64,000 nucleotides of DNA from Candidatus Wolfebacteria bacterium RIFCSPLOWO2_01_FULL_47_17b. Lineage in GTDB: Bacteria; Patescibacteriota; Minisyncoccia; UBA6257; JAGOQP01. Positions within the stretch are counted from its first letter, which is position 1. Every line of letters begins with the position of its first letter. A model generated the notes under the pieces. The model was not told the origin of the DNA. It made no database searches and saw nothing but the letters and a program-made list of their open reading frames with translations. The stretch lies in assembly GCA_001793865.1 (NCBI GenBank), contig MGIS01000024.1, positions 21,525 through 85,524 of the forward strand, in the 5' to 3' direction. This document shows, piece after piece, positions 15,107 through 64,000 of this stretch. Both the position numbers and the translations under genes were made by a program.

Positions 15107-15129
15107 GGAAACTATACACTCATCCTCTT

Positions 15130-27738: not shown

Positions 27739-29476
27739 GATTTCACAAAAGAATATTTCGGAGGACAGTGAAGTGAAAAATCTTATCGCTCCGGCGGCAA
27801 TCCAGTCCAATCAGTCGCACTTGAAGGTGGGAAATAAATTTGCGAAGACGTTTTTTGTTTTTTCGTACCCACGGTATCTTTCGAGCGGATGGTTTTCGCC
27901 GATTATCAATCTCGCGAAGTTGTTTGATATATCCATTTTTGTGCACCCGGTGGATACCGCGTTGGCGCTTCGCAATTTGCGCAAAAAAGCGGCGCAGGTT
28001 GAAGCCGAGATTCTGGACAGGCAGGAAAAGGGATATGTGCGGGACCCCATGCTTGAAACCGCGTTCGGCGACATCGAGGGCTTGCGGGATAATCTTCAAC
28101 AGGCGCAGGAGCGGTTGTTCGATACGGCGGTGTACGTAACCATCTATGCCGAGACGCTTGAAAAATTGCAGGAATTGGAGGATACACTGGTGAACTTATT
28201 TGAGAGCAAGCTCATATACATCAAACCGGCAATTTTCCAGCAGGTGGAGGGCCTCGTGTCTACGTTGCCGCTCGCGCAAGACAAGCTTGCGATTCATACG
28301 CCTCTGAATTCCGGCCCGGTATCGTCGTTTTTTCCGTTCACGTCCATGGATCTTACGTCGGAGAACGGGATAATGTATGGCATAAATTTGCACAATAATT
28401 CGCTTGTGCTCTTCGATCGATTTTCTTTGGAAAACGCGAACCAGGTTGTGTTCGCCAAGTCGGGAAGCGGAAAATCGTACGCAACGAAGCTGGAAATTTT
28501 GCGTACGCTTATGATGGGGACCGAGGTAATCGTGGTGGATCCGGAAAAAGAGTACAAGAATTTGTGTGATACCGTTGGAGGCACGTATTTCAATGTATCG
28601 CTTACGTCGGATCAGCACATAAATCCTTTCGACATACCATTCGTACCGGAAGGAGAAGATCCGGCAGATGTATTTCGTTCACACATACTGACGATGGCGG
28701 GGCTTTTGAAGATTATGTTGGGAGATATTGCCGTGGAAGAAGAAGCTCTTCTGGACCGGGCTATAAGTGAAACATACTCGTCGTTCGACATTACACCGGA
28801 TAATCCTAACTTTTTAAAACTGGATGCGCCTCTTCTGTCCGATTTTGAGACCGTTTTGCGAAATATGGAGGGCGGAAAAGATATGGCGGAACGATTGTAT
28901 AAATATACACAAGGAAGCTACGCGGGGTTCGTGAATCAAAAGACAAATATAGATGTGCAGAACCGGCTGGTTGCGTTTTCAATACGAGATTTGGAGGACG
29001 AGCTGCGGCCGATTGCCATGTATGTCATCCTTAACTTTATTTGGAACTTGGTGCGGTCGCAGATGAAACGGCGCATACTTGTGATAGATGAAGCATGGGT
29101 GATGATGAAATACCCCGAAGGGGCAGCCTTTTTGTTCGGGATGGCGAAGCGCGGGCGTAAATATTACCTAGGCCTTACCACTATCACGCAGGAAGTTGAC
29201 GACTTTCTGAATTCGCCGTATGGGAAGCCTATTATCACCAACTCGTCGTTACAGCTTCTTTTGAAGCAAGCACCAGCGACCATAGATACGGTTGCAAAGA
29301 CGTTCAACCTGACCGAAGCGGAGAAGAATCTTTTGCTTGAGGCGGGCGTGGGACAGGGAGTGTTTTTCGCGGGATTGAAGCATGTTGCCATGCAGGTGGT
29401 GGCCTCGTACTTTGAGGATAAAATTATTACGACCAAGCCGCAACAATTATTATCGGAAGAGGAGCCACTCGTATAA
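27722..29476 (+). CDS. VirB4/TraC-like conjugation ATPase, C-terminal ATPase portion
   Basis: Walker A 'AKSGSGKSYATK', Walker B 'RRILVIDEAWVMM'; overlaps upstream ORF in +1 frame. Confidence 0.8.
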   Translation: MEQKIRISQKNISEDSEVKNLIAPAAIQSNQSHLKVGNKFAKTFFVFSYPRYLSSGWFSPIINLAKLFDISIFVHPVDTALALRNLRKKAAQVEAEILDRQEKGYVRDPMLETAFGDIEGLRDNLQQAQERLFDTAVYVTIYAETLEKLQELEDTLVNLFESKLIYIKPAIFQQVEGLVSTLPLAQDKLAIHTPLNSGPVSSFFPFTSMDLTSENGIMYGINLHNNSLVLFDRFSLENANQVVFAKSGSGKSYATKLEILRTLMMGTEVIVVDPEKEYKNLCDTVGGTYFNVSLTSDQHINPFDIPFVPEGEDPADVFRSHILTMAGLLKIMLGDIAVEEEALLDRAISETYSSFDITPDNPNFLKLDAPLLSDFETVLRNMEGGKDMAERLYKYTQGSYAGFVNQKTNIDVQNRLVAFSIRDLEDELRPIAMYVILNFIWNLVRSQMKRRILVIDEAWVMMKYPEGAAFLFGMAKRGRKYYLGLTTITQEVDDFLNSPYGKPIITNSSLQLLLKQAPATIDTVAKTFNLTEAEKNLLLEAGVGQGVFFAGLKHVAMQVVASYFEDKIITTKPQQLLSEEEPLV

Positions 29477-29895
29477 TGGAAGAGGTACAAGAAGGAATTG
29501 AACAAGTAGATGAATCGGTGGAATTGTCCGAAGAAACTGAAGAAGATGAGCTGAATCGTCCGCGGTTTGATATTATAGAATCGTTTTTTTTAATAGCGTT
29601 TAATGCCCTGGGGGATATTGCGGAGCTTCTCGATATAACGGGTGTCGGCGTCGTGGTGGGGCTCGCTGTTGATTTTATAAATGGACCTCTTACCGTGATG
29701 TATTTGTGGATTAAGGGCGTGCCTCGGACAGTAGGCAAAAACGCGCTTGCGCAGACGGTTGAGCTTTTCCCTTTTATCGATATTCTTCCGATACGTACCG
29801 TCGCGATAGTATATACGATATTAATTACCAATCATCCCGAGCGTTTTCGGAAACTACAGTCGGCGCTTTCTTTCGCAAAAAAGGTTAAAAAGTGA
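29476..29895 (+). CDS. hypothetical acidic small membrane protein
   Basis: Acidic N-terminus, two hydrophobic segments; start overlaps VirB4 stop. Confidence 0.35.
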   Translation: MEEVQEGIEQVDESVELSEETEEDELNRPRFDIIESFFLIAFNALGDIAELLDITGVGVVVGLAVDFINGPLTVMYLWIKGVPRTVGKNALAQTVELFPFIDILPIRTVAIVYTILITNHPERFRKLQSALSFAKKVKK

Positions 29896-29906
29896 CGGCG
29901 ATGCCG

Positions 29907-29962
29907 TCATCCTGAGCGAAGCGAAGGATCTCATGAAAACGAGGAGATTGCTTCGCTTCACT
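29907..29962. repeat. imperfect inverted repeat GTCATCCTGAGCGAAGCGAAGGATCTC...GAGATTGCTTCGCTTCACTCGCAATGAC
   Basis: ~27-nt arms, ~80% complementary, 11-nt loop. Confidence 0.5.
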
Positions 29963-29966
29963 CGCA

Positions 29967-30671
29967 ATGACAAGATGTATGTTATATACTATGTGCATGA
30001 ATAAAAGGTTTCCGCACCTTTTTGTGCCCGTATTTTTTACCTTCCTTTTTGCCGTCTTGGCGTTGTCCGCACAAGCGGCGGATCCGCAGTTTTTGGTGAC
30101 GTGGAAAGCACAGACGAAGGTTCCGGTGTGGTATGAAGGCAAAGCGCTTGCGGTGCAGAACAGCTCGGTGCTTGTGTCGCTTGCGATGGTAGAGCAGAGC
30201 GGGAAACTCCTTAATCTTAGCGGATCTGAAATCCGATGGTATCTGAAAGGGGAATTGGTGCAGAAAGGGACGGGACTCACGTCCATTTCGGTTCTGAATA
30301 AGGACTTTTCGGGAAACTATATAGATCTGAAAGTTTCGGTTGAATATGCCGATCAGCAGAGCGGCAGGCGGTTTATTGATGCGTACTACACTATTCCTAT
30401 CGTAAGTCCCAAAGCGGTGGTAGAGTATAAGAATCTTCAACCCTCATACGTTGCCGGATCCGATCTTTTGGTGAAAGGCTATCCGTTCTTCTTCACAAAT
30501 TCGTATCTGAAGTCCGAATGGGACCTCGGCGGATCGCAAAAAGTGCAAGATTCATATGAACTTCGCATTGAACAGGCGCCAGCGGGAATACGCAGTATTC
30601 AATTTGCCGTATGGAACCCGAGCAGGGTGCTCGAAAAGGCGCAGAGCACGCTTTATTTACAGAGCAACTAG
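29967..30671 (+). CDS. hypothetical secreted protein
   Basis: N-terminal signal peptide ending 'ALSAQA'. Confidence 0.45.
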   Translation: MTRCMLYTMCMNKRFPHLFVPVFFTFLFAVLALSAQAADPQFLVTWKAQTKVPVWYEGKALAVQNSSVLVSLAMVEQSGKLLNLSGSEIRWYLKGELVQKGTGLTSISVLNKDFSGNYIDLKVSVEYADQQSGRRFIDAYYTIPIVSPKAVVEYKNLQPSYVAGSDLLVKGYPFFFTNSYLKSEWDLGGSQKVQDSYELRIEQAPAGIRSIQFAVWNPSRVLEKAQSTLYLQSN

Positions 30672-30776
30672 AGTAATGACAAATCCGCCAGCTGGCGGAC
30701 CAATTTCCAATGTCAAATCAAGTCCAAAGGTCAAGATCCAAATGACAAGGCGGCTGTTTCGTTGTAGTATATATAC

Positions 30777-31058
30777 ATGGATGTTGAACAGATAAAAGTG
30801 AAAATCGTGCCAATACTCAAATCCGCTGGGGTTACGCGGTCGTCTTTGTTCGGCTCGGTCGTGCGGGGCGAAGCGACGGAATCCAGCGACGTTGATGTAC
30901 TGGTTGAATTTCCAAAAGGGAAAACGCTCCTTGATTTGGTGCGCCTGCAGAATGAGTTGGAGGGCGCACTTGACAGACGGGTTGATGTTTTGACGTATAA
31001 GTCACTACATCACTTGTTTCGAGACGAAGTTCTTAAAAGCCAAGTCCCCATACTATGA
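30777..31058 (+). CDS. mntA: MntA-like nucleotidyltransferase antitoxin
   Basis: 'LFGSVVRGEATESSDVDVLVEF' minimal nucleotidyltransferase motif. Confidence 0.75.
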   Translation: MDVEQIKVKIVPILKSAGVTRSSLFGSVVRGEATESSDVDVLVEFPKGKTLLDLVRLQNELEGALDRRVDVLTYKSLHHLFRDEVLKSQVPIL

Positions 31059-31396
31059 GAAAAGATCCTCAAACGCTCCTTAAACACATTAAAGAGAGTA
31101 TCGAATGGGTTGAATCATATGTTGCAGGACTTTCGTTTGAAGATTTTTTTAGATCGCAGGAAAAACAGGATGCCGTTTCAAAACGATTGGAGATAATCGG
31201 CGAAGCGGTGAAAAATCTTCCGCAAGAAATACGGGATGCACACACAGAGATTCCGTGGAAAGAAATAACAGGTATGCGGGATCGGCTTATACATGAGTAC
31301 TTTAGCATTGATGCGGAATTGGTGTGGGATACGATTGGATCTGATATGACGAAGTTAAAAAAATGGGTTGTGGAATTCTTGAATAAAAAGGAATAA
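31055..31396 (+). CDS. hepT: HepT-like HEPN (DUF86) toxin
   Basis: HEPN R-x4-6-H motif 'RDRLIHEY'; 4-nt overlap with mntA. Confidence 0.75.
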   Translation: MRKDPQTLLKHIKESIEWVESYVAGLSFEDFFRSQEKQDAVSKRLEIIGEAVKNLPQEIRDAHTEIPWKEITGMRDRLIHEYFSIDAELVWDTIGSDMTKLKKWVVEFLNKKE

Positions 31397-33240
31397 TGAA
31401 AACAATTTTTATAATTTTATTTGTGCTCCCCATCTTTTCTTTCGGTACCGTTGTATATGCGCAGACGACGACGATATCAAGTAGTTCGCTTGCGCTGGAT
31501 CAGATACCCGGAGACCCAACCAACCCGCAGGGGCCGGCGGATCTGGTGCAGAAGATATTTGCGTTCGCGATATACATTGCAGGCACGCTTGCGGTCATTA
31601 TGATCGTATACGGCGGCGTGCGGTATGTGGTTGAAGCGGGCAATACCGCGTCGCAGACCGAAGCCAAGGAAGTATTGAAAGGAGCGGTATGGGGAATTAT
31701 CCTGCTTGCCGGCGGTTGGCTGATACTCAATACCATAAATCCCCAGCTTACCAATCTTTCGAACCTGGGCTTGCAAAACGTGACGATACACGGGAATACG
31801 TCGCAGTTAGAGCCGCCCGAGGGGCAGTTTGATACGGGTGGTAATCTTGGTGATAATACTCTCGGGTGTACGGTTGAAAATATAGGGATGTCGTACAATG
31901 ATCCAAACAGTGGATTGCAAAAGATTGCTATTGATTACCTTGCTACCACTCCAAATCTGGATTCTGGTGGAGATTGTGGCGTGAATACGAGTCCGAGAAA
32001 CATTGTTAATGCGGTTGCGGGCGGTACCATCCCGCAGGTATGTGATCGGAGCGACAAAAATCAATCATGTAGTTGCGAGCAAGGAGGTGATACGAATAAA
32101 AAAACGCTCTGTCCACTTCTTTTGCAGCGGCTTACTATTCTTCAGCAGAATGCAAGCGTGCTTCCATCATTCACAATTGAGAGTTTGACGGGGGGAGATC
32201 ATTCGCCGGGATCAACTCATTATCAGGGAAGAGGTGTTGATATTACTGTGCCGGGAGGCAGTATTGGTGACTGGCAGAATGTGCGTGCGGCAATGGTGCA
32301 AGCCGGATTTCGGTCTGCAAAATTTGAATACAATAGGAATGGCAGACCATACTTTTCTCCAGGAAGTGGAAATGACGGCGACTTCCTCGCATCAGGGAGT
32401 ACAAACCAGCATATACATGCTGAATCAGGAGGAGCAGGAAGCCCTCCTCCAGGTAGTGAAAATCAATTATTGGAAGATTTGAAGAATCTTGCATTGCAAC
32501 TTGACTTGAATAAATTTAAGGGCGATATGTCCTGGGGGCTTCCATCGAGTACCCTTGATCCTACGTATACATGTAATGCGGGATCCGATCCGCGCTCAAT
32601 TATCAGCGAGACCTCAAAGATGAATCTTCCGATGGTGTGTGATACAAGCGCGTACGGGACGATCCCGGGAACCGATAACGTTTTTTCGGTTGACTGTTCA
32701 TGTAATGTTGGCGGTAAAGATGGAGTTCGTGTGTTGGATAAGCGTTTGCTCCAGAAACTCGTTTCCCTACAAGAAAGCGGTATTGACTATAGGGTCGTTT
32801 CCTTAACGGGAGGCGTACATAAAAATGACGGAATTGCGAGTAGTCACCATTATAGCGGTACCGCGCTGGATGTGGTTCCAATGAGCGGCTCGGTAATATC
32901 TCAAAATCAATCTGATTGGATTGCGCTGTATAATGCTGTCAAATCTGCTCAGCCGATCGCCGGAATCGTTGATTATATATACGATGAGGTGAACACGGAT
33001 TCCAAGATCGTATTTGAAGGGGTTACGCCGATTGAGTATAGGTGGATTGATAGTATTATTACAAAGCCTACTAATGATACTTTGGCATTGCTTCAGTGCC
33101 CCACAATGAATTTCAGCGGGAGCAGTCCAACACATTTGTACAGCATATTTGAGATTAAAAATCCCATCGCAGATTCACGCTTTCATACCGAGATTATAGG
33201 GAGGTGCTACAATCCGCGTATTCGAGCAGTCGTGAATTAA
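31396..33240 (+). CDS. VirB2/TrbC-pilin-like N-terminal domain fused to large Cys-rich extracellular region with two M15/LAS-peptidase-like repeats
   Basis: Signal peptide plus two TMs; repeats 'HSPGSTHYQGRGVDI' and 'ASSHHYSGTALDV' resemble 'SxHxxGxAxD' Zn-site of M15 peptidases. Confidence 0.4.
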   Translation: MKTIFIILFVLPIFSFGTVVYAQTTTISSSSLALDQIPGDPTNPQGPADLVQKIFAFAIYIAGTLAVIMIVYGGVRYVVEAGNTASQTEAKEVLKGAVWGIILLAGGWLILNTINPQLTNLSNLGLQNVTIHGNTSQLEPPEGQFDTGGNLGDNTLGCTVENIGMSYNDPNSGLQKIAIDYLATTPNLDSGGDCGVNTSPRNIVNAVAGGTIPQVCDRSDKNQSCSCEQGGDTNKKTLCPLLLQRLTILQQNASVLPSFTIESLTGGDHSPGSTHYQGRGVDITVPGGSIGDWQNVRAAMVQAGFRSAKFEYNRNGRPYFSPGSGNDGDFLASGSTNQHIHAESGGAGSPPPGSENQLLEDLKNLALQLDLNKFKGDMSWGLPSSTLDPTYTCNAGSDPRSIISETSKMNLPMVCDTSAYGTIPGTDNVFSVDCSCNVGGKDGVRVLDKRLLQKLVSLQESGIDYRVVSLTGGVHKNDGIASSHHYSGTALDVVPMSGSVISQNQSDWIALYNAVKSAQPIAGIVDYIYDEVNTDSKIVFEGVTPIEYRWIDSIITKPTNDTLALLQCPTMNFSGSSPTHLYSIFEIKNPIADSRFHTEIIGRCYNPRIRAVVN

Positions 33241-33244: not shown

Positions 33245-34423
33245 ATGAGAAGAGTAATTATCATACTTATCATAGTTGTTATTATCGCGATCATTGCGGG
33301 TGTTGTATTCGCGCTGTTGGACTCCGGTAACGGAGATGGTGAAGATTCTCCGTTGAAAAACGTATTTCCAATTTCTCTCCTGTATCCCGATACATCTTCT
33401 ACTCCCGGTGTCTTCATTCCAGGAAGTGGCGGAGGAAGCGGTGGGTACACTGAGGAGACCGATGAATACGCGGAAGGTTCTGCTGTGCATCCGATCCCAC
33501 TTTCACAGGAAGAGATATATGGATACTGGGTTTCGAGCAGTACGGCATTCTTTTTGACCAAAGACGGGGACCTGAAGAAAAACGACGGGACTGGAGAATT
33601 TTCACTTCTGTCGCATTCATACGGCATACCGCTTAGGGTAAAGCAAAATCTCGCTGGGACCGCCGCCGCGGTGAAGTTTGATTCCGGATCCACGTATCTA
33701 TATATAGAAAGCCGCAATGCGTGGGAGTTTTTGGGCAATGCCATAAGCGACTTTGCATTTTCGCCGGACGGCAACAGTTTATTGGCGCTTGAAGAACGGG
33801 GAAGTGAAATGTCCATGGTGCGACACGAGCCATTTACAACACCGAAGCGCGCCGTGACGCTGCTTCGTATGAGTGGTGTGGATTTGCGCGTGCAGTGGCC
33901 GAGCGCAAATCGGGCGGTGCTTTCATCGGTGCCTTCATACTATGCCGAAAGTCAGATATGGGAAATAAACCTGCAAACGCAGACATTTAGAAAAATAGCA
34001 GTGGGAAGCGGTATGAGCGCAATTACCTCGCCGTTCGTCACGCGCACGGTTGTCTTTACGCCCGAATCGAAACAGAAAATGGTTGCACGTTTGTATGCCT
34101 CGGATGGAACTCAGGTGAATTCTTATTCCAGAATGCTTCTTGAGGCAAAGTGCGGTGCATCGCTGAGTGATCCCATTGTGTGGTGCGGCGCCCCTCAGCT
34201 TGTACCTGCCGATGCTCACGTGTTTCCCGATGATTATCTTCAGCGTGAGGTATTTACGCACGATGAACTCGCGGGCATCGCGCTTGATACGGGAGAATTT
34301 TTCACGATTCCGTTCAGGTCCGACTCATATGTGGATATGTCTGGAGTCAAACATAGTAATGGTGTTGTGTATTTTATAAACCGACTTGATGATAGATTAT
34401 ATAAACTAGAAGTTGGACTTTAG
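33245..34423 (+). CDS. membrane-anchored beta-propeller-like protein (TolB-like repeats), hypothetical
   Basis: N-terminal TM, 'DFAFSPDGNSLLA' repeat. Confidence 0.35.
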   Translation: MRRVIIILIIVVIIAIIAGVVFALLDSGNGDGEDSPLKNVFPISLLYPDTSSTPGVFIPGSGGGSGGYTEETDEYAEGSAVHPIPLSQEEIYGYWVSSSTAFFLTKDGDLKKNDGTGEFSLLSHSYGIPLRVKQNLAGTAAAVKFDSGSTYLYIESRNAWEFLGNAISDFAFSPDGNSLLALEERGSEMSMVRHEPFTTPKRAVTLLRMSGVDLRVQWPSANRAVLSSVPSYYAESQIWEINLQTQTFRKIAVGSGMSAITSPFVTRTVVFTPESKQKMVARLYASDGTQVNSYSRMLLEAKCGASLSDPIVWCGAPQLVPADAHVFPDDYLQREVFTHDELAGIALDTGEFFTIPFRSDSYVDMSGVKHSNGVVYFINRLDDRLYKLEVGL

Positions 34424-34478
34424 GAGTTACGAGGTGGAACCTCGGTTTGGGGAGGTTCTACCTCTAATACAATTAACT

Positions 34479-39978: not shown

Positions 39979-40785
39979 ATGACTATTTTACTGTATGGGC
40001 CTGATACGTATTCCAGACAATGCAAGCTTGTCCAGTTTCGTGAAGGAGTCGTGAAGCGCAATCCTGATGTGGTGCAGGGCTCGTTTGATTTGAGTGAAGA
40101 TGGCACGCTGTATACGCTACACGAGTTTGCATCGGTGCGGGGGCTCTTTTCGCAAGGAAAGCGCATTGCGGTTGTGCGCGGCGCTCTTGGTTTTTTTGGC
40201 AATGAAGCTTTTGTCCGAATCGTATCCCGCGCGGCGCATGATCCAGACGTGCTTTTGCTTTTGCAGGAAGACCGGGACAGAAAATTAGACCGAAAGACGG
40301 AATCGTTCTGCAAAAAGAATGATATACAGGTGCAATATTTTGCAAAACCGACCGTTGCAACAGTGCGTACACGGGTGCAGGAGCACGCTGTATCAATCGG
40401 TGTTACGATCGATTCTCGGGCGCTTGATTTTCTGATTGAAGCGCGTGGGCAGGATATATACGCGTTAGTATCGGACATTGATAAATGGTCCGCCGTCAGC
40501 ACGAAAATCGATGTACCGTTTCTTTCAAAGACGGGCGAGTATGCTGCGGGAATAGGCGTATTCGATTTTTCTCAATCGGTGTTGTACCGAAAACCGCTTG
40601 CGGAGCGGCTCTCGCTGTTTGAGCGCGTTTCTTCACAAGGGATTGATCTATACGCGGCGTTCAACATTATCGCGAAAATGACCGCTTCCAAGGATCTTAT
40701 TGATTTGCTTGCCGCCGCGGATCTGAAAATAAAAAAAGGCCTTTTGGATATACAGCAAGCGATGCTTGCTGTGGTTATAGATTAG
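39979..40785 (+). CDS. holA: DNA polymerase III delta subunit-like
   Basis: Size/N-terminal pattern 'LLYGPDTYSRQ'; weak. Confidence 0.4.
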   Translation: MTILLYGPDTYSRQCKLVQFREGVVKRNPDVVQGSFDLSEDGTLYTLHEFASVRGLFSQGKRIAVVRGALGFFGNEAFVRIVSRAAHDPDVLLLLQEDRDRKLDRKTESFCKKNDIQVQYFAKPTVATVRTRVQEHAVSIGVTIDSRALDFLIEARGQDIYALVSDIDKWSAVSTKIDVPFLSKTGEYAAGIGVFDFSQSVLYRKPLAERLSLFERVSSQGIDLYAAFNIIAKMTASKDLIDLLAAADLKIKKGLLDIQQAMLAVVID

Positions 40786-41218
40786 GGGTTTTGGCGTAGA
40801 AGCTTGTATGGTTGAGGGGCTTTGTTTGATGTTTGTCTTTAAACGAATTCCACGCAGTGGCAAGGTTGAATAGTTGTCTCGATGTAATGTCGTAGACGGT
40901 GATGAGTTCAGTGCAGAGCGAAATTTCAATCCTGTAGATATCCTTGATTTGTTCAAGTCCCACGATTGTTTCGTTGCTTTCGGCCATTGCGTCATCAAGA
41001 TATTTTTGAAACCCGCGTTTTTGATGACGTTTTGCATAACCTTCTGCGATAAGACGAGGCACAGCTTTGCATGATCGTGATAGCTGATCTTTTAAATCAT
41101 ACCTTTCGTTAAGAGGTAGTTTTGGAATAATTTTAGTCATCAAAATAACACAGGCGTTGTAGCTGTTTTTATATACTTCTAAGTCCCGAAAACTTCTTAT
41201 GGGTTTTTTTATTTCCAT
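40775..41218 (-). CDS. four-helix-bundle protein (23S rRNA IVS-protein family)
   Basis: 'FRDLEVYKNSYNACVIL...QLSRSCKAVPRLIAEGYAKRHQKRGFQKYLDDA' classic TIGR02436-type pattern. Confidence 0.8.
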   Translation of the reverse strand: MEIKKPIRSFRDLEVYKNSYNACVILMTKIIPKLPLNERYDLKDQLSRSCKAVPRLIAEGYAKRHQKRGFQKYLDDAMAESNETIVGLEQIKDIYRIEISLCTELITVYDITSRQLFNLATAWNSFKDKHQTKPLNHTSFYAKTPNL

Positions 41219-41599: not shown

Positions 41600-41720
41600 T
41601 AATATATTTAATTTTTAATTTTGACTTTCGAATTTCGAATCAATTTTTAATGATTGAATTTTCAAAATTAATACATTCGAGCTTGATTCGAAATTCAAAA
41701 TTAGAAATTCGAAATTATTA
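41600..41720. repeat. AT-rich GAATTTCGAAT-type palindromic intergenic repeat, copy D
   Basis: Near-identical to copy E including upstream 'tatatttaatttttaattttga'. Confidence 0.7.
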
Positions 41721-45049: not shown

Positions 45050-45165
45050 ATATTTAATTTTTAATTTTGATTTTCGAATTTCGATTCAATTTTAAATGAC
45101 TGAATTTCTAAAACTAATACATTCGAATTTGACTCGAAATTCAAAATTAGAAATTGGAAATTTTT
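45050..45165. repeat. AT-rich GAATTTCGAAT-type palindromic intergenic repeat, copy E
   Basis: Sequence near-identical to copies B and D. Confidence 0.7.
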
Positions 45166-46996: not shown

Positions 46997-48487
46997 ATGA
47001 ATATAATGCGAATGTTACGAAATCGGAGCCCAAAGCTCGTAAGGTTTGGCCTTGGTTTGCGAAGGCCGAACCTTGGTTTTACGAGCTTTGGATGTAAGAA
47101 TTCTTTCACCCTGATTGAGCTCCTCATCGTCATAGGCATCCTCGCCATCCTCACCGCCGCAGTCGTCATCCTCCTCAACCCAGCAGAAATGCTCAAAAAA
47201 GGACGGGATGGTACCCGTATGCAGGACATTGCTTCGCTTGATACAACCATATCACTTCTTGAAACACAGGTATCCAATCTTGATCTGGGCATCGCCCAAA
47301 CCCTCTATATATCCATTCCCGATCCATCCCTATCAGGATCATCTACATCCACCTGTTCCTCACTTGGACTTCCAACACTTCCGAGCGGTTATACCTACCA
47401 CTGCGTATCCCAAGACAATCTCCGAAACGTAGATGGTACTGGCTGGCTCCCCGTGGACTTTACCCAATCGGGCATCACCTCTCTTCCCGCGCTTCCCATC
47501 GATCCTACCAACAGCACCTCTACAGGTCTTTTCTATCGCTACATACCCGGAGGCAGTTATCACTTGGAAGCACTACTTGAATCAAACAGCTATCTAGCTA
47601 CCGCTCAAAGTGATGGTGGCTCTTCTCCCTCTGCATTTGAAAAAGGATCCAACCTTACTCTTATGCCTCCCACCTTTCCTACCGGCTATGTGAAAGTACC
47701 AGGCAACTCAACCTTCGGTACCTCTGATTTCTATGTCATGCAGTATGAGGCGAAGTGTTTTGATGAAAACAACCAACCTCTTCCCTATACCACCGGAGAT
47801 GGAGGTGAGGGAGCAACGTACAACATATATCGAGACCTTTCATTCCCCTGCACATCCGCAAACAACAAGTATGTAGGATCCGCACCCACCGGAGCTCCTA
47901 TTACCCGCGTATCCCAAACAAACGCAATTGCCCGATGTGAAGCATCGGGTGCACATCTCATCACCAATAATGAATGGCAGACCATCGCGTGGAACATACA
48001 AAATAACGCAGTCAACTGGAGCGGCGGATCGGTGGGATCTGGTACCGTACCTCGTGGAAATTCAAACACGTCCGCGGCCATGAGTGACGCCTCTACATTG
48101 AGCGGAGTCAATTATCGAAAGCACATACTTTCAAACGGAAATGAGGTGTGGGATATGGCAGGAAATGTCTGGGATTGGACAAGCGATACCATTGTGGGAA
48201 CTAACAAACCCGCAGGCACGGCAGGTTCGTGGGTTGAATTTACCGCCGTATCAAATTACGGGACACTCTCCCGCTCACAGTTTGGTCCCGTTGACAGCTC
48301 GTGGAGTGCTACGCAAGGTCTTGGTCGCTACTATATGGGAACCGCCGATGGAACAACTTACGCCTTTCTACGCGGCGGCGATTGGGGTGATAGCACGAAC
48401 GCGGGGGTTGAGACGCTGTACCTGACCTACACGCCGGGCTATACGGAGAAGCTACATCGGGTTCCGTTGCGCGAGGTAGTCGTGTAG
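46997..48487 (+). CDS. DGR target protein: type IV pilin-like N-terminus plus C-terminal C-type-lectin/FGE-fold variable region
   Basis: Prepilin-type helix 'FTLIELLIVIGILAILTAAVVILL'; C-terminal VR (48360-48480) matches TR with A-specific differences. Confidence 0.8.
   Translation: MNIMRMLRNRSPKLVRFGLGLRRPNLGFTSFGCKNSFTLIELLIVIGILAILTAAVVILLNPAEMLKKGRDGTRMQDIASLDTTISLLETQVSNLDLGIAQTLYISIPDPSLSGSSTSTCSSLGLPTLPSGYTYHCVSQDNLRNVDGTGWLPVDFTQSGITSLPALPIDPTNSTSTGLFYRYIPGGSYHLEALLESNSYLATAQSDGGSSPSAFEKGSNLTLMPPTFPTGYVKVPGNSTFGTSDFYVMQYEAKCFDENNQPLPYTTGDGGEGATYNIYRDLSFPCTSANNKYVGSAPTGAPITRVSQTNAIARCEASGAHLITNNEWQTIAWNIQNNAVNWSGGSVGSGTVPRGNSNTSAAMSDASTLSGVNYRKHILSNGNEVWDMAGNVWDWTSDTIVGTNKPAGTAGSWVEFTAVSNYGTLSRSQFGPVDSSWSATQGLGRYYMGTADGTTYAFLRGGDWGDSTNAGVETLYLTYTPGYTEKLHRVPLREVVV
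48360..48480 (+). repeat. DGR variable repeat (VR)
   Basis: ~120 nt aligned to TR 48942-49060; about 10 of about 13 mismatches at TR adenines. Confidence 0.8.
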
Positions 48488-48556: not shown

Positions 48557-48928
48557 ATGTTGCAAAATCTTGTCATCTACCAAAAGACGTATGATCTGCT
48601 GCTCTGGCTGTATCCGGTTGTAAATAAATTTCCCAAAAGCCAGCGGTTCGTGCTCGGACAGCATATTGAAAACAAAGCGCTTGATCTGCTGCAGCTTTTG
48701 ATCCGCGCGCAAGCGGCAATGGACAAGAAAACATATTTGCGGGGCATAAGCATTGCATTGGACGAACTGCGCACACTCGTGCGTTTGGCAAAAGATCTCA
48801 AGTTTATGCAATTGAAACAATATGAACAGGCGGCGGATAGGCTGAATGAGATTGCGAAACTACTCTGCGGACTTATGAAAAGGTTTATTCCGGAGTATAC
48901 TGAGAGCGCTTATCAAAAGCAGGGGTAA
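48557..48928 (+). CDS. avd: DGR accessory variability determinant (Avd), four-helix-bundle protein
   Basis: 123 aa helical, Avd/four-helix-bundle pattern, between target and TR/RT. Confidence 0.75.
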   Translation: MLQNLVIYQKTYDLLLWLYPVVNKFPKSQRFVLGQHIENKALDLLQLLIRAQAAMDKKTYLRGISIALDELRTLVRLAKDLKFMQLKQYEQAADRLNEIAKLLCGLMKRFIPEYTESAYQKQG

Positions 48929-48941
48929 GACTGCACAATGG

Positions 48942-49060
48942 ACGCCTTTCAACGCGGCGGCGATTGGAATAATAGCACGAACGCGGGGGTTGAGACGCTG
49001 AACCTGAACAACACGCCGGGCAATACGAACAACAACATCGGGTTCCGTTGCGCGAGGTAC
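48942..49060 (+). repeat. DGR template repeat (TR)
   Basis: Adenine-rich relative to VR (AAC/AAT codons). Confidence 0.8.
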
Positions 49061-49211
49061 TCATTACTTTTTGGCCCGAATGAAGCGTGTACGCACACTT
49101 CATCTGAGCCGGACGACTACTGCCTTATTCCTTCTCCAAAAGAGTAAATACACATCCCATTCTCCGCGCTGTTGCATATGCTCCGGCGCGGAGGTGGAGG
49201 GATGTTTTATT

Positions 49212-50210
49212 ATGTTTGATCAACTCACTTCATTTCAAAATCTGCACCAAGCGTATCGGGATGCGAGAAAAGCAAAAAGATATCGCCCCGCTATCCTGCG
49301 ATTTGGATGCATGCTTGAAAAGGAACTTCCAATACTGCGGGATGCATTGCGCAACGGGACGTATGTACACGGCACCTACAGGACATTTATTGTTTCCGAT
49401 TCCAAAAAACGAATCATTCAAGCAGCTCCATTTCGCGATCGAGTGGTGCACCACGCGGTGTGCAATGTGATAGAGCCATTGTTCGAGCGTACCTTTATAC
49501 ACGACTCATACGCGTGCCGAAAGGACAAGGGGACGCATGCGGCGGTCAAACGATTGCGTTCGTTCATGCAAAGTTGCGGGGGGGGGGGGTCCAGGGTCTT
49601 CTGCCTGAAATGCGACATATCCAAATACTTCGATTCCATAGATCACGGAATATTATTGGGGCTACTGAAGAAGGGGCTACGAAAAGAAACCAAGGTTGAA
49701 CCTTCGCAGACCAAGGTTCAACCTTGGTCACTTCTCAATCTCTGCGAGCAGATCATCCGAAGCGTTCCTTCGGGCGTACCCATAGGCAATCTCACGAGTC
49801 AATTATTCGCAAACATCTATCTCAATGAACTTGACCAGTATGTGAAACGCGTACTCAAAGAACGATACTATATCCGCTATATGGATGATTTTCTTATTTT
49901 GAGTACGGATGCAGAGCATTTGTACAAACAACGAGAGTGCATACGCGCATTTTTGCGGGATCGATTGAAGCTTGTTTTGCATCCAAAAAAATCATCCATA
50001 TTTCCAATCATGCCCAACGGCATAGATTTTCTAGGATATCGTGTGTTCACGCACCATGTGGAATTGCGGAGATCTACCGTACAAAGGTGGAAGAGAAAAT
50101 TCAAAAATCTTCCGGCGGATCTCAGATCGGACGCGATTCGTGATTGGAAAGGATACACGAAGCATGCGAAATCGTGGAAGACGGTTCAAGGATTGCGGAT
50201 TTTGAAGTAA
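49212..50210 (+). CDS. DGR reverse transcriptase
   Basis: 'IGNLTSQLFANIYLNELD' and 'YIRYMDDFLIL' (YxDD) motifs; upstream ORF-track start 49071 overlaps TR. Confidence 0.85.
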   Translation: MFDQLTSFQNLHQAYRDARKAKRYRPAILRFGCMLEKELPILRDALRNGTYVHGTYRTFIVSDSKKRIIQAAPFRDRVVHHAVCNVIEPLFERTFIHDSYACRKDKGTHAAVKRLRSFMQSCGGGGSRVFCLKCDISKYFDSIDHGILLGLLKKGLRKETKVEPSQTKVQPWSLLNLCEQIIRSVPSGVPIGNLTSQLFANIYLNELDQYVKRVLKERYYIRYMDDFLILSTDAEHLYKQRECIRAFLRDRLKLVLHPKKSSIFPIMPNGIDFLGYRVFTHHVELRRSTVQRWKRKFKNLPADLRSDAIRDWKGYTKHAKSWKTVQGLRILK

Positions 50211-59225: not shown

Positions 59226-60241
59226 TGGCGAACATCGCCCTTTTTCACATATCCGGCTGGGAACGGGAATATCTGACAAAGAAGCTTACCGATGCGGGAC
59301 ATTCGGTAGATGTGTATGACCACTCCCTTGATGCAGAGCACCTCCCCGACAAGCGGGACTACGAGGTGCTTTCTGTTTTTGTGGGATCGGCGGTGACTCC
59401 GGATGTGATCGATGCGTTTGGGAGCGTAAAGCTGATCACAACCCGTTCGACTGGATACGATCATGTGGACATTGCACATGCTCGGCAGAAAGGGATTTCG
59501 GTGGGATACGTACCGCATTACGGCGAAAACACCGTCGCGGAGTTTGCGATGGGGCTTTTGCTTACGCTGTCCCGCAAGCTGTATCTGGGTATTGACCGCA
59601 TTAAGGAGACGGCGCAATTTTCATATGAAGGACTGGAAGGTTTTGATTTGAAAGGAAAGACCGTTGGCGTAATAGGAACGGGCAGGATCGGCAAGCATTT
59701 CATACAGATGCTGAAGGGATTTGATGCGCGGGTTGTGGCGTACGATGTGTATCCGAACAAAGAGCTTGCCGCGGAGCTTGGCTATACAATGGTCTCACTG
59801 GATGAGCTGTATGCCGCAAGCGACATTATTTCCCTGCATTGCCCCTGCACGCCCAAAACAACGCACTTGCTCAATAAAGAAGCATTTTCAAAGATGAAAA
59901 AAGGAGTTGTGCTTATAAATACAGCGCGCGGCGCGCTCATTCAGACCGAAGCGCTCGTGGCCGCCCTGCAGAACGGCACGGTGGCCGGCGCAGGGTTGGA
60001 CGTACTGGAGGAGGAGGGAGTTGCATCGGATGAAATGGGCTATGTTATGCACGGCGGAAGTTTGGACAAGGCCCGTACGATGCTTGCGAACCATATCCTT
60101 ATGGATCATCCCAATGTGGTCATCACGCCGCATAACGCGTTCAATACCAAAGAAGCAAAAACCCGCATTTTAGACGCTGATTTCGAAAACATCACTTCGT
60201 TTCTCACCTCCTCCGTCCCGGCCTTTCCGGTCAAGATTTAA
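59225..60241 (+). CDS. D-isomer-specific 2-hydroxyacid dehydrogenase (NAD-binding)
   Basis: 'GVIGTGRIGKHFIQMLKGFDARVVAYD' Rossmann motif, catalytic His region. Confidence 0.8.
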   Translation: MANIALFHISGWEREYLTKKLTDAGHSVDVYDHSLDAEHLPDKRDYEVLSVFVGSAVTPDVIDAFGSVKLITTRSTGYDHVDIAHARQKGISVGYVPHYGENTVAEFAMGLLLTLSRKLYLGIDRIKETAQFSYEGLEGFDLKGKTVGVIGTGRIGKHFIQMLKGFDARVVAYDVYPNKELAAELGYTMVSLDELYAASDIISLHCPCTPKTTHLLNKEAFSKMKKGVVLINTARGALIQTEALVAALQNGTVAGAGLDVLEEEGVASDEMGYVMHGGSLDKARTMLANHILMDHPNVVITPHNAFNTKEAKTRILDADFENITSFLTSSVPAFPVKI

Positions 60242-61004
60242 TCTTGCACGGTGTTGTTTGTGCAAGATTAAATCTTGGACATTTTTGAATACAAGGATTG
60301 AATTTCGTTTGCATTTGGGTTTTGAAGCCAATTCGTTATTTCTTTCTCATATTTATCTGGCCCATTAAAAAAATCCATAAGAAATTTTCTATTTGTAACA
60401 AGTGGGAAGTTTGGTGTTCCGATATAATCTAGATGGCTACTCCATCTATACCCACTCAAATACTCCATTGCTTTTCGGGGATTCTCAACGCCTCCATTCC
60501 TCCATTCTGGAAATTTTAAATCGAGAGGATTTAGGTGGATGTAATACGGTAGGTGGAGAAGGTGTGCGTCTTTTTTAACTTCCGCAGATTTATATGTCCC
60601 TTGAAACAGTGAGCCAGATCGTTCGTATTTTATGTTGAAATACATCGTGTATGCTATTCCTATCTTCTGCATGAATTTTTGAATTCCATCTTTCTTAATT
60701 TCTTGTAGCATAAGGTGGAAGTGGTTTGGCATCAGGCAAAAAGCAAGAATGTTCACTAAGGGACTTCCTTTTCTCTCCTTTTTTAGGTTTTCTTCGTCTA
60801 TGTCTTCTATTCTTCGTTTAGTATTTTTCTCTGATGTTTCTGTTGAATTGAATTCAAATAAATCTAGGACAAGTCGTATCCTATCTTTATCTTCTTGAAA
60901 TATGTTTCTTTTATCTACACCTCTGTTGTATATATGGAAGATTTTATTCATTTTATTTTAATTCAAGATTAAATCTTGCACATGATGTGCAAGATTTAAT
61001 CTTG
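60232..61004. mobile_element. IS200/IS605-like unit: HuH gene flanked by subterminal hairpins (60232-60277 and 60964-61004)
   Basis: Left CAAGATTTAATCTTGCAC-N10-GTGCAAGATTAAATCTTG; right perfect 20-nt-arm palindrome CAAGATTAAATCTTGCACAT/ATGTGCAAGATTTAATCTTG. Confidence 0.65.
60268..60951 (-). CDS. IS200/IS605-like (RAYT-like) HuH Y1 transposase family protein, second paralog
   Basis: 'MPNHFHLML' HuH; clearly homologous to 14369-15085 product ('IYHIYNRGV', 'ERSG-LFQG-K', 'LPYYIH-N-LD'). Confidence 0.6.
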   Translation of the reverse strand: MNKIFHIYNRGVDKRNIFQEDKDRIRLVLDLFEFNSTETSEKNTKRRIEDIDEENLKKERKGSPLVNILAFCLMPNHFHLMLQEIKKDGIQKFMQKIGIAYTMYFNIKYERSGSLFQGTYKSAEVKKDAHLLHLPYYIHLNPLDLKFPEWRNGGVENPRKAMEYLSGYRWSSHLDYIGTPNFPLVTNRKFLMDFFNGPDKYEKEITNWLQNPNANEIQSLYSKMSKI

Positions 61005-61012
61005 AACGCCGG

Positions 61013-64000
61013 CTATTCCTGGAAGTAATATCGGGTGGGGTCGGTTGCGGCGAGGTAGTAGGTTTGGCCGCCGGCGCTGGAAAAGCCGAGTACATAATAC
61101 GCGACGGTGAGGAAATCGTTTGGTGATAGTGTGCCAACCTGTTCTTTGATGAGGTCTATGTGGATCGAACTGGCGCCTACGCTGTTTGGATGAATATAGT
61201 TTTGATTAACGGGGCAAGATGCGGCGTTGTCGTTCAGCACAAGCGCGGGCGCGGTGGTTTGTTTGTTGTTGCATTTACGATATGAGACGGGCAGGGCGGA
61301 TGCGCGCATGTCTTCGCTCCACTCTGCATCAAGTGCTTGACCCCCTCCGACGTGGAATGAGCTCATTGTGGCTGGGTCGCTATTCAAGAAGAAGATGACA
61401 AGCTTGGCAGAGCCGCTTCCAGTATTTTGTGTGTATAGATCCGGTATAAAAGGATATGCATCATATTGCAGTTCAACAGTAGGGGATTCTTGGCTGGTGA
61501 ATAAGATATTTGATACATATGCGGGTATGTCGATATCCCCTTTGTATGAGACGCCGACCGTTGTTGCAGTTAGTGCGGTTGCGCGGATGGCGTAAGTTCG
61601 CCCAACTTCTGATATTTGGAAGCGGTAATAATCAACATCGGCTGTACCCATCTTGACAGGATTATCGGGATCGGATACATCTTCTATAAGATAGTGTTCA
61701 TTTTCCTGTAGTTCTCCTTGCCAGCTCGCGACAAGCGCAGGCGCGAACCGTTGCATGTCGCGTTCCTCTTCGGGCGTATCCTGTAAACTCGCGAGGTATT
61801 CAAGAGTAAGTGTTGACGTGTCTGTGGTCTCGTCTTCCCCAACTTCTTCCGGGGGACCACATATATTTATTTCTCCCGGTGTCGGAGCCCCTGGGCACCA
61901 CACACTTTCCGTAATCTGCAAAGAGTTTCCGGTTTCACTTGCTCCCCATGAAGAATCAAACTCCACTGAATCAATTTTTAAGTCACTGTTATACAAGGCA
62001 AGCGTGTCTGATTCGTTTTTTATGGAGCAGGATGGGCAGGAGCTTTGTAAAAGCATGCCCGAAAAGCCTGGAAATTCTTCCAGGAATCCATTTGTGTCAT
62101 ATGCGATGATCGCATATTCGCCTGGAGACAATACTGCGTCTCCTTGCGCTGGCGTTATCGTGTGTTTTGTACCCTCTTTCTCGGTATGTTTCCAGTTCAG
62201 CAGGTCGGCGTTAGTTGTATCTTCATTAAAAATTTCTATCCATTCCCGACCATTATCTGCTCCAATCGGGTCGTAATATATTTCGGTAATCGTAACCGCA
62301 GTAAATATGGGCGAGGGGCTTGGTGAGGTGGATGGGAACGGTGAGATGGTTGGGGATGCTGACGCGGCTGGTGAGGACGAAGGTGAGGGCGAAAGTGTTG
62401 GATCGGCGTCGTTTGCTTCACTCCCTCCTACCCCTCCGCCGGAGGATGATCCCCCAGTCTGTGATGGAGTAGAATTTGTCCTTTTAGGCGTGCCGTCGGT
62501 TATCGAGGATGTGTACCATACGCGGGTCGATTCATTACGCTCCATTGTTTTACGGCTCGAAGCATTTCCCGCTTGCCACTTTGTGTTTGTAAGTGCGTCT
62601 ATGATGCCGCATGCGGCATTGAACAGGTATAGTTTCTCTCCTTCATTTGCCAACGTGCCAGTATATATTATATCTGCTTTGATCCCCGGCATAGAAGTAT
62701 CATCCGTGCGCTCAAGCAGGGCATAGGCGTCTGCCTGGATTGTTATGCTTGGAAACGACATATCCACCGATCCGTCAGCTGTTTTTAGCCCCCAACCGGA
62801 AAGGTTTATGCTTGAGTTGGAGATATTTTTCAGCTCGATCCACTCGTTTGCCGCGCTTTTGGTTGTTCCCATCCATGCGATTTCGGTTATGAGAATTGGG
62901 GAATAGGTGGGTGTCGCGTTTGTTGGAATGGAGCAGGTGTTTGGTACGGGGGATGGTGACGGAGTTGGTTTAGGCGAGAGCGTTGCTTTTAGTGTTGGCG
63001 TTGGCTTTGGTGATGCTTTTGCTTGCGGTAAGCTTGTTGAAGCCGGAGATGTTTTTGGCGAGGAAGAGGGTCTATATGTTGGGGTGGGAGATTTTTGAGG
63101 TGCAACCTCCCCGGACCGAGGTTGAATATCGGTGACAGGCGATGTGACAATCTTAGGCGAACTTATAGGAATCGTAATAATCTGCTCATTATTCGACGAC
63201 CCTCCGCCGAAGATCGAATTGATTGTATTTTCGGCGAATTCAATTATTTGGCCTATAAATGTTTTCTTTTTGGTGAGGAATTCGGGATTATTTTTATTTT
63301 TCTCGGCTTCTTGAAAGAAGAGATCTATGACTCCCGCGCTGTATTCTATTGCTTTTTTTGAAAGCAGGTTCCAGTAGTCGTTCATTACGACATTGTTTTC
63401 TAGAGTAAAATCTTTTTTTGTTGTTATTAGAGCACTTGAACCACTTACCTGTGTATAGAGGTGAAGTTCTTTTCCAGATTCGTCTTTCCCTATTCCATAT
63501 AATAGATTTCCAATCTGTATTACATCGGTTGGTTGTGGTTTACTATAACCGCTTTGAATTCCGATCGTATCTTTGCTGTAGAAATTATTATTTGAATATA
63601 CAGCGAGATCGGTGAAGAATGAGTCAAGGTTGGGGAGTATTTTTGGCGTCAAGCCTGCGTTTCTGGGTGCGTTTGCGTAGTCGGGAGCGTCGGGATTGAA
63701 TCGCTTTGCGTAATTTTCATACGGACTTCCTTCGGGATGTGTATCGTTTCGGGTATGGTCTGGCACGGATGTGTCTTCCATAAGGTGCAGAATGTGCCCG
63801 AGGGTGAATAGCGCCATTTCTTTTTCACCTTGTATCCAGTATCTCAAGGCCTCGTTCCATGTAAAATCGGATGTGGGGAAGTACGGCTGTATTTTCCCAG
63901 ACTGCATAGCGGAAAGAACCGTGGCGATGACGGGTGAATACACAAAAGATGTTTGGTTCTTGGAATCTTGCGCCCAATCCTTTGATTTCTGCCAGTTTCC
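61013..64000 (-). CDS. very large secreted protein with Zn-phospholipase-C/P1-nuclease-like N-domain, Pro/Ser/Thr linkers and two lamin-tail domains (5' end beyond window)
   Basis: 'LGHILHLMEDTSVPDHTRNDTH' Zn site-like; LTD motifs 'ILITEIAWMG...EWIELKN' and 'VTITEIYYDP...EWIEIFN'; frame open to window edge. Confidence 0.55.
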   Translation of the reverse strand, partial: GNWQKSKDWAQDSKNQTSFVYSPVIATVLSAMQSGKIQPYFPTSDFTWNEALRYWIQGEKEMALFTLGHILHLMEDTSVPDHTRNDTHPEGSPYENYAKRFNPDAPDYANAPRNAGLTPKILPNLDSFFTDLAVYSNNNFYSKDTIGIQSGYSKPQPTDVIQIGNLLYGIGKDESGKELHLYTQVSGSSALITTKKDFTLENNVVMNDYWNLLSKKAIEYSAGVIDLFFQEAEKNKNNPEFLTKKKTFIGQIIEFAENTINSIFGGGSSNNEQIITIPISSPKIVTSPVTDIQPRSGEVAPQKSPTPTYRPSSSPKTSPASTSLPQAKASPKPTPTLKATLSPKPTPSPSPVPNTCSIPTNATPTYSPILITEIAWMGTTKSAANEWIELKNISNSSINLSGWGLKTADGSVDMSFPSITIQADAYALLERTDDTSMPGIKADIIYTGTLANEGEKLYLFNAACGIIDALTNTKWQAGNASSRKTMERNESTRVWYTSSITDGTPKRTNSTPSQTGGSSSGGGVGGSEANDADPTLSPSPSSSPAASASPTISPFPSTSPSPSPIFTAVTITEIYYDPIGADNGREWIEIFNEDTTNADLLNWKHTEKEGTKHTITPAQGDAVLSPGEYAIIAYDTNGFLEEFPGFSGMLLQSSCPSCSIKNESDTLALYNSDLKIDSVEFDSSWGASETGNSLQITESVWCPGAPTPGEINICGPPEEVGEDETTDTSTLTLEYLASLQDTPEEERDMQRFAPALVASWQGELQENEHYLIEDVSDPDNPVKMGTADVDYYRFQISEVGRTYAIRATALTATTVGVSYKGDIDIPAYVSNILFTSQESPTVELQYDAYPFIPDLYTQNTGSGSAKLVIFFLNSDPATMSSFHVGGGQALDAEWSEDMRASALPVSYRKCNNKQTTAPALVLNDNAASCPVNQNYIHPNSVGASSIHIDLIKEQVGTLSPNDFLTVAYYVLGFSSAGGQTYYLAATDPTRYYFQE

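Follow-up and report, generated by a model that had tools for sequence, protein, structure and literature searches.

A short, mostly intragenic hairpin family in a Candidatus Wolfebacteria genome and its probable relationship to a REP/RAYT system

Where repetitive extragenic palindromic (REP) sequences occur together with REP-associated tyrosine transposases (RAYTs), the proposed replicative unit is a REP doublet that forms a hairpin with compensatory changes; in Pseudomonas fluorescens such doublets have spacings of 71 nt and 110 nt (PMC3116915). The excerpted text of a second study describes REPs of the GTAG/CGTC type as mostly intergenic. It also reports intragenic copies, singlets as well as dimers, that lie in frame, many of them in replication and repair genes including those of UvrD/Rep helicases; the spacers of the intragenic dimers may measure 1–2 bp, and the Rickettsia palindromic elements (RPEs) RPE-4 and RPE-6 are equated with these REPs (PMC3733652). 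Here we describe F1, a family of short hairpins in a 64,000-nt stretch of DNA (the window, always meant at its full length) of Candidatus Wolfebacteria bacterium RIFCSPLOWO2_01_FULL_47_17b, a member of the candidate phyla radiation (CPR) from Rifle groundwater. With a probability of about 0.65, F1 represents a REP doublet belonging to a REP/RAYT system of Wolfebacteria, in other words a miniature non-autonomous element resembling the REP doublets forming hairpins known as REPINs. To our knowledge, work on REP/RAYT systems has been almost entirely confined to Proteobacteria, in which they count as extragenic, and a literature search found no paper mentioning RAYTs in CPR. Rickettsia palindromic elements were reportedly described by Ogata et al. 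in 2000, those of the RPE-1 type being some 100–150 bp long; we know of no transposase for the latter.

F1 consists of the arm R-AGGTT-S-AACCT-Y, an 8-nt loop, GGTCTGSG, and the same arm again. The arm is itself an odd-centred palindrome of 13 nt, and the two inverted arms around the 8-nt spacer form a hairpin of 30–40 nt. A preliminary description of the window had assigned the TT and AA next to the loop to the loop itself, but they belong to the stem, and the stem of the copy in the reverse transcriptase (RT) gene has 16 bp instead of the 14 bp given there. The four copies that it listed are all present where it placed them; two diverged copies, one intergenic (34431–34464) and one in an LTD-domain gene (63101–63126), had been missed.

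The family is far more frequent than chance would allow. Hairpins with the loop GGTYYGSG and at least 8 pairs number six in the window, compared with 0.03 expected from 300 shuffles. The arm GGTTSAACCTT, with one mismatch or none, has 11 matches against 1.9 expected (none of 100 shuffles scored as high), and a 16-nt F1 core has seven matches with up to three mismatches where 0.6 are expected. The copies score 50–63 bits by covariance model (CM) and fold stably as single-stranded DNA (z between −5.9 and −8.8). An alignment of seven F1 copies shows changes on both sides at 6 of the 13 stem pairs; 94.5% of its cells are paired, whereas shuffles give 85% (none of 500 reaches the observed value), and sliding the register lowers pairing to 31–58%. 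The same copies recur in independent JGI, ENA, NCBI and Logan assemblies and are therefore not an assembly artefact. The F1 family, its covariation and its conserved loop are thus real.

F1 resembles no Rfam family. On its 3′ side it is followed by GG(Y), while the 5′ side is variable; a search beside the copies found neither a target-site duplication nor a conserved target motif, and no direct repeats flank them. No strand bias was seen, the loops being distributed 3:3 over the two strands of the window, which lies on one replichore. Some other kinds of element were considered and rejected: a CRISPR-like solitary repeat, as there is no array; a terminator, as F1 lacks a T-run; and an accessory structure of the diversity-generating retroelement (DGR) in the window (a hairpin by the variable repeat (VR) and its IMH, or a spacer RNA between the template repeat (TR) and the RT), as F1 is not positioned next to VR or TR and its other copies lie in unrelated genes.

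Further copies were found outside the window. In a metagenome scan with the exact F1 core, the sole contig matched (loci L003 and L004) belongs to Ca. Wolfebacteria RIFCSPHIGHO2_01_FULL_48_22. The transposase R1 of the window (see below) has a 100% identical counterpart among the proteins of that genome, and in independent assemblies of the population the identity to the window is 99.4–100%, so that these loci represent further pieces of the same species. On them, a UvrD/AddA-like helicase gene contains F1 in perfect form, identical to the copy in the GH3 gene over 36 nt. In the same species, a hairpin in the triosephosphate isomerase (TIM) gene combines the loop GGTCTGGG with an entirely different stem, and one in ybeY has an F1-like stem with a different loop. 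A single F1-like arm, CGAGGTTAAACCTCG, was noticed inside the Dus gene of L004. A scan of a genome collection with a 21-nt F1 core gave only two matches, in a metagenome-assembled genome and in Donghicola; neither has an intact hairpin, and we treat both as chance. A viral scan with the same core gave no match.

Five of the six window copies, as well as those in the helicase, TIM and YbeY genes, are located inside open reading frames (ORFs). F1 thus departs from the extragenic location that defines a REP, and agrees with a REP in repeat number and in its form as an inverted doublet. The preliminary description took the length of every copy to be a multiple of 3 nt; the coordinates that it gave span 30, 28, 40 and 30 nt, but all intragenic copies do leave the host ORF open. 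The coordinates are collected in Table 1.

Table 1. Positions of the F1 copies, the transposase genes with their palindromes, and other features. Positions are those of the window unless a locus is named; CM, covariance model score.
Feature	Position	Strand	Structure	Context
F1 copy	12196–12229	+	GAGGTTCAACCTT-GGTCTGGG-AAGGTTGAACCTC; 13-bp stem; CM 61.6 bits	GH3 (nagZ-like) gene 11297–12370 (−); codes EVQPSQTKVEPH, aa 48–59
F1 copy, slightly decayed	25232–25263	−	loop GGTCTGGG on − strand; stem (25234–25261) 10 bp, one T·G wobble on + strand, which is a mismatch on − strand; CM 54.3 bits	hypothetical ORF 24886–25923 (+); codes DVQLSQTKVEP, aa 116–126
F1 copy, diverged	34431–34464	+	GAGGTGGAACCTC-GGTTTGGG-GAGGTTCTACCTC; CM 56.8 bits; −25.7 kcal/mol, z −5.1	intergenic, 8 nt past stop of ORF 33245–34423, upstream of histidine kinase gene
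62-nt hairpin	47030–47091	+	−40.3 kcal/mol, z −6.0; core 47041–47074 is F1 variant AAGGTTTGGCCTT-GGTTTGCG-AAGGCCGAACCTT with compensatory stem changes, 13-bp stem with one wobble, CM 55 bits; outer 12-bp arms CCAAAGCTCGTA / TACGAGCTTTGG	leader-coding part of DGR target gene 46997–48487 (+); codes PKLVRFGLGLRRPNLGFTSFG, in a frame different from that of the other copies
F1 copy	49689–49728	−	16-bp stem; loop GGTCTGCG on − strand; CM 60.6 bits	DGR reverse transcriptase 49212–50210 (+); codes TKVEPSQTKVQPWS, aa 160–173
F1-like copy, degenerate	63101–63126	−	TTCAACCTC-GGTCCGGG-GAGGTTGCA; CM 49.7 bits; no longer folds as minimum-free-energy structure	LTD-domain gene 61013–63943 (−); codes IQPRSGEVA
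R1, RAYT-like Y1/HUH transposase gene	14369–15085	+	238 aa; Pfam Y1_Tnp 26.7 bits (cutoff 23)	
F2 palindrome	14343–14361	+	AC-GAGGCTCAGCCTC-GTAG, GTAG-tagged	5′ flank of R1
F2 palindrome, in frame	14544–14566	+	CCTAC-GAGGCTGAGCCTC-GTAGG	inside R1; codes SYEAEPRR
F2 palindrome	15088–15108	−	CTAC-GAGGCTGAGCCTC-GTGG; inverted relative to 5′ copy	3′ flank of R1
R3, RAYT-like Y1 transposase gene	60268–60951	−	227 aa; Pfam Y1_Tnp 35.4 bits, E 1.3e-8	
F3 doublet hairpin	60229–60280		21-bp stem; arms CAAGATT-W-AATCTTG	flank of R3
F3 doublet hairpin	60962–61006		21-bp perfect stem	other flank of R3
F2 doublet, F2′ singlet and F1-like arm of Dus gene (listed together)	L004 11974–12022; 7575–7591; 16524–16540			
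DGR, complete	target gene 46997–48487; VR 48353–48481; bAvd 48557–48928; TR 48935–49062; RT 49212–50210			
AT-rich TTCGAA repeat	9996–10107, 25938–26030, 26560–26593, 41626–41719, 45055–45165; L003 6700–6830			
CCTCACTTAAG...GATC...CTTAAGTGAGG palindromes	17694–17725, 18383–18422, 19651–19692			

The peptides encoded by F1 depend on how the hairpin is read. With CCCAGACC on the sense strand it reads SQT in the GH3 gene, ORF 24886 and the RT (PQT in the TIM copy); in the opposite orientation it reads WSG, as in the helicase, EVQPWSGKVEP; and in the DGR target leader another frame gives FGLGLRRPN(LG). One frame, which contains TGA whichever way the hairpin is oriented, is not used by any copy. 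The occurrence of both orientations, of two frames and of an intergenic copy shows that F1 is a feature of the DNA or its structure, not a protein motif.

Homologues of the host proteins allow the insertions to be seen directly. The RT contains a clean block of 13 aa, TKVEPSQTKVQPW, that is missing from all 23 aligned homologues, the closest of which is 64% identical. In an AlphaFold2 model of the RT (mean pLDDT 81), residues 160–173 form a coil with a pLDDT of about 56 between helices 145–159 and 174–183. The insert of the UvrD-like helicase is missing from 16 orthologues. In the GH3 protein, where the F1 site is a linker after the signal anchor, the syntenic orthologues of two sister species (L013 and L024) are 6–8 aa shorter at this site. 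Homologues of the DGR target protein align from query residue ~33–36 but from their own residue ~2–20, which indicates that the leader in the window is ~25 aa longer, matching the 62-nt hairpin. There is no alternative start codon downstream of this hairpin, so it must be translated if the target protein is made. F1 is therefore in frame and lineage-specific in the RT, the UvrD-like helicase and the GH3 gene. The preliminary description had spoken of a selfish palindrome that sits in frame in unrelated genes, whose products tolerate some 10 extra amino acids, and the RT, helicase, GH3 and target-leader comparisons agree with this. For ORF 24886, the comparison with the L013 orthologue is ambiguous as to an insertion. 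A neighbouring gene of L024 was rejected as a counterpart of ORF 24886, since it is not an orthologue.

One could ask whether a peptide motif, VQP-SQT-KVEP, was selected at the protein level with the DNA palindrome being incidental, given that three window copies encode the nearly identical peptide xVQPSQTKVEPx. The helicase copy, however, encodes its peptide from the opposite orientation, the target copy uses the other frame, one copy is intergenic and the changes in the stem compensate one another in the DNA. RT and helicase homologues lack both the peptide and the DNA, and the RT peptide forms a low-confidence loop in the model. Orientation and frame data effectively refute the peptide-motif explanation.

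The window also encodes two RAYT-like transposases, R1 and R3, which went unreported in the preliminary description. R1 has its HUH motif at N87-H88-x-H90 and a candidate catalytic tyrosine in Y148-I-H-x-N; 30 homologues share both without change. In the PDB, sequence searches with R1 returned nothing useful, and it was the fold search that gave a match: for the AlphaFold2 model (pLDDT 78.7), the best PDB match by Foldseek is 4er8_A (probability 1.00, TM 0.57 on the target), followed by IS608 TnpA. The entry 4er8 is the complex of the E. coli RAYT (TnpA_REP) with a REP hairpin. R3 is 41% identical to R1 (BLASTP) and lies above the Pfam cutoff for Y1_Tnp. A third paralogue of the same species, R2, is 62% identical to R1.

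Each of these genes has its own palindrome. R1 is flanked on both sides, in inverted orientation, by the palindrome F2 with the consensus AC-GAGGCT-S-AGCCTC-GTAG, R2 by GAGGCT-W-AGCCTC (F2′) and R3 by the F3 doublets. At least three RAYT-like genes of this species are thus flanked by cognate palindromes. R1 and R3 possess the Y1/HUH domain and the tyrosine of RAYTs as well as cognate inverted flanks, and R1 occupies a fixed locus: its orthologues in the sister species L013 and L024 are found in the same slot, between a ComM-like and a UvrD-like gene. Their palindromes have diverged from F2 by compensatory pairs, to GAAGTT-S-AACTTC and GAGACY-S-RGTCTC. Such a layout and such behaviour are those of REPtrons.

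The RAYT-like genes carry, in addition, a third, in-frame palindrome copy at a fixed internal site (aa ~59–66, low pLDDT), which we observed in R1 and at L010 10175–10199, L024 ~6410–6440, and L025 and L027 ~10181. In R1 it falls in a low-pLDDT segment of the model, residues 48–70. Across species the internal copy covaries with the flanks, encoding YEAEPR, YEAKPR, SETESR, YEVRPR or YEVQPR; YEAEPR is paired with GAGGCT..AGCCTC, SETESR with GAGACC..GGTCTC and YEVQPR with GAGGTT..AACCTC. A peptide of the form YE[VA]x[PL]R is present at the internal site in 80 of 120 members of the transposase family. We know of no description of an internal in-frame cognate palindrome in RAYTs; the internal copy could serve autoregulation or act as a donor for spread. 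We also noticed an F2 doublet in frame in the F1-bearing helicase (TTRLSLKVPTRLSLVD) and an intergenic F2′ singlet in L004.

The link between F1 and the transposases comes from related genomes. In Ca. Wolfebacteria GCA_016188075.1, a member of the transposase family with 49% identity to R1 has TAC-GAGGTT-S-AACCTC-GTA on both its 5′ and its 3′ side, and an internal copy as well. Its GAGGTT-S-AACCTC is exactly the F1 arm, which is one compensatory pair away from F2 of the window and likewise from the L013 palindrome. Another genome carries GAGGTTCGACCTC. In 15 of 120 family members the internal site reads YEVQPR or YEVEPR, which corresponds to the F1 arm read in the frame that yields EVQP and KVEP in the F1 host genes. 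Flanking palindromes with the F1 arm and these internal-site peptides together indicate that the palindrome of which F1 is the inverted doublet is of a type cognate to this transposase family.

If F1 is such a REP doublet, a genome-encoded RAYT-like Y1/HUH transposase would recognise F1-type hairpins on single-stranded DNA and copy or move them to new sites without target-site duplication. Most landings would hit genes, because the genome has almost no intergenic space. The copies that survive would be those that keep the frame, avoid the TGA frame and sit in linkers, leaders or surface loops, where F1 may persist as 10–13 additional, harmless residues. We infer mobilisation of F1 by a RAYT, its present or recent mobility, and selection rather than targeting as the cause of its frame and placement.

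Several observations weigh against this interpretation. Within the ~108 kb read of this species, we found no RAYT gene with F1 itself at its flanks; the three RAYT-like genes seen there have F2, F2′ and F3 instead. F1 also lacks the GTAG/YAC tags present at RAYT-associated palindromes. No dispersed F1 doublets were found in the 10–20 kb sampled from each related genome bearing a GAGGTT-S-AACCTC REPtron, nor any F1 in the 10–20 kb sampled from each sister species (orthologues 56–64% identical). R1 matches the NCBIfam model of REP-associated tyrosine transposases, NF047646, with an E-value of 1.3e-5 and 25.1 bits, the cutoff being 80; by sequence, R1 would at best be a distant branch of the RAYT family. 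ORF 24886 shows little or ambiguous length difference to its L013 orthologue at the F1 site, and TIM and YbeY differ from PDB homologues by a net length of just 4–7 aa, which is ambiguous. Comparisons between strains revealed no presence/absence polymorphism of F1 and no empty-site allele, so that mobility is deduced only from fairly distant orthologues (56–64% amino acid identity).

Could F1 be a functional cis-element that does not move, such as a binding site or an mRNA or DNA processing or pausing signal that a host factor reads through the loop GGTCTGSG? The conservation of the loop while the stems covary is what such a role would produce, and the TIM copy retains the loop on an unrelated stem. 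Three copies have G·U/G·T wobbles on the sense strand, and in the DGR target gene a very stable hairpin follows closely on the start codon. The loop is, however, in sense orientation in about half of the copies and antisense in the rest, so that RNA would show GGUCUGGG in some and CCCAGACC in others. The host genes are functionally unrelated, the positions within them arbitrary, and orthologues in sister species do without F1; two copies are decaying, and the arms equal a transposase-flanking palindrome. We therefore regard an immobile cis-element as quite improbable.

The hairpin of the GH3 gene behaves unusually in assemblies. Four contigs of other assemblies end in or beside it. The MEGAHIT contig L014 begins with it (positions 1–40, equivalent to 12202–12240 of the window) and reads CAACCTT-CCCAGACC-AAGGTTGAACCTCGGCG, which is the hairpin with the loop turned round compared with the window; besides L014, three assemblies end within or next to the hairpin. 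The flipped loop may reflect a true flip/flop; alternatively, it is a fold-back artefact of the library or the assembly.

A flipped loop of this kind is what a strand switch would leave behind, and F1 might have arisen or spread without a transposase, by template switching at quasi-palindromes, gene conversion between palindromes or RT-mediated insertion linked to the DGRs of this genome. Two of the six window copies do lie in the DGR cassette, the species has a second DGR, and conversion could make the internal and flanking palindromes of the RAYT-like genes evolve in concert, as they do. Yet the flipped loop is equally well explained by the fold-back artefact. The copies display neither an adenine-specific mutation pattern nor similarity to TR or VR. 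Template switching perfects quasi-palindromes but does not bring the same 36-nt sequence into unrelated genes such as those of GH3 and the helicase, and the arms correspond specifically to a palindrome type associated with Y1 transposases. A route without a transposase is unlikely.

With F1 read as a REP doublet, its relation to the known systems can be specified. Like REPINs (Bertels & Rainey 2011), F1 is an inverted doublet that folds into one hairpin in which compensatory stem changes are common, and as in REP-RAYT systems there are several Y1/HUH paralogues, with a fixed locus and vertical inheritance, each with its own palindrome type. Unlike REPINs, F1 is far shorter (30–40 nt with an 8-nt spacer), has no GTAG tag and is intragenic in five of six window copies. 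It was not seen to flank a RAYT in this genome, the proteins are ~230–240 aa long and below the NCBIfam RAYT cutoff (R1), and the host is a CPR bacterium. In comparison with the GTAG/CGTC REPs as presented in the excerpted text of Di Nocera et al. (2013), a helicase gene is again affected, here bearing both F1 and F2 doublets; F1, however, has neither tag though F2 has GTAG, and its intragenic share is far higher than in that text, in which Patescibacteria, the lineage studied here, are not met.

The preliminary description had called F1 RPE-like. It shares with the Rickettsia elements that a palindromic repeat sits in frame in functional genes, where the added peptide is tolerated, and this part of the comparison stands. 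F1 measures only 30–40 nt, however, belongs to another lineage and has arms that match Y1-transposase-flanking palindromes; given these arms and the RAYT-like genes, REP/REPIN-RAYT systems are closer than the 100–150-bp RPEs. Transposition without target-site duplication is established for the IS200/IS605 family. The TnpA proteins of this family (PDB 2a6o, 2vjv) resemble the present system in their Y1/HUH fold and in the recognition of DNA hairpins, and F1 is likewise free of flanking direct repeats. The RAYT-like genes differ from these insertion sequences in being diverged paralogues (41–62% identity) instead of identical multicopy elements, in their conserved syntenic position (R1) and in having identical inverted flanking palindromes, not distinct left and right ends. 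Both intragenic REPs and the RPEs of Rickettsia have been described before; F1 is a short, untagged and mostly intragenic form in CPR.

It is conceivable, though we put this forward as a tentative idea that may well be wrong, that Patescibacteria carry a distinct REP/RAYT branch, characterised by a transposase with an in-frame internal cognate palindrome that is located in a disordered loop and covaries with the flanks, and by doublets that are mainly intragenic because intergenic space is so scarce in these streamlined genomes. F1 would then keep supplying core enzymes (RT, helicase, TIM, YbeY, GH3) with short peptide insertions. What we describe would be the logic of REP/RAYT in the ultra-small genome of a CPR bacterium, in a miniature and mostly intragenic version, with a DGR RT and central enzymes among the genes hit. 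Should the link to the RAYTs be true, it would show in what way a streamlined genome can live with a hairpin parasite or commensal and would account for some lineage-specific peptide insertions in CPR proteins. It would also offer a small, testable protein–DNA pair with three paralogous transposases and three or four distinguishable hairpins. On the practical side, contigs of several metagenome assemblies end at F1 hairpins, which can also mislead gene annotation and protein alignments in CPR.

The window has some other features worth recording. It starts near the replication origin (dnaN and dnaA at 1190–3861, dnaA at 2485–3861), and its GC skew rises steadily. The DGR is complete (Table 1), and its RT protein is 100% identical to A2935_02050 of RIFCSPLOWO2_01_FULL_47_17b, which is encoded on an 86.6-kb contig. 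The prepilin N-methylation motif is usually preceded by Gly. In the DGR target protein, the prepilin-type motif (47081–47110) is preceded by Ser, KNS/FTLIELL. Another contig of the same species (L010 16798–18184) encodes a second RT of the DGR type, next to a bAvd gene; the gene calls differ between assemblies. Orphan genes for four-helix-bundle proteins similar to 23S_rRNA_IVP/bAvd were found away from the DGR at 26611–26976 and 40775–41218.

Two more palindromic families were noticed. An AT-rich repeat of ~110 nt with TTCGAA-N-TTCGAA palindromes is common to several intergenic regions and is probably the other RPE-like element alluded to in the preliminary description. Palindromes of the form CCTCACTTAAG...GATC...CTTAAGTGAGG, with stems of 12–14 bp, lie at or near gene ends around a PaaX_M-domain gene. 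L019 lacks 23 nt (window 16264–16286) in the UvrD-like helicase gene 15130–16929, which splits the ORF; a relation to the palindromes was rejected, since the segment is not a palindrome, and the deletion represents a strain variant or an assembly error. Finally, a cluster resembling conjugation and type IV secretion systems (T4SS) extends from 26040 to 33240, with genes for a PrgI-like protein, a TraG P-loop ATPase and a T4SS pilin-like protein, and an MNT/HepT toxin-antitoxin pair (30777–31396) is embedded in it.

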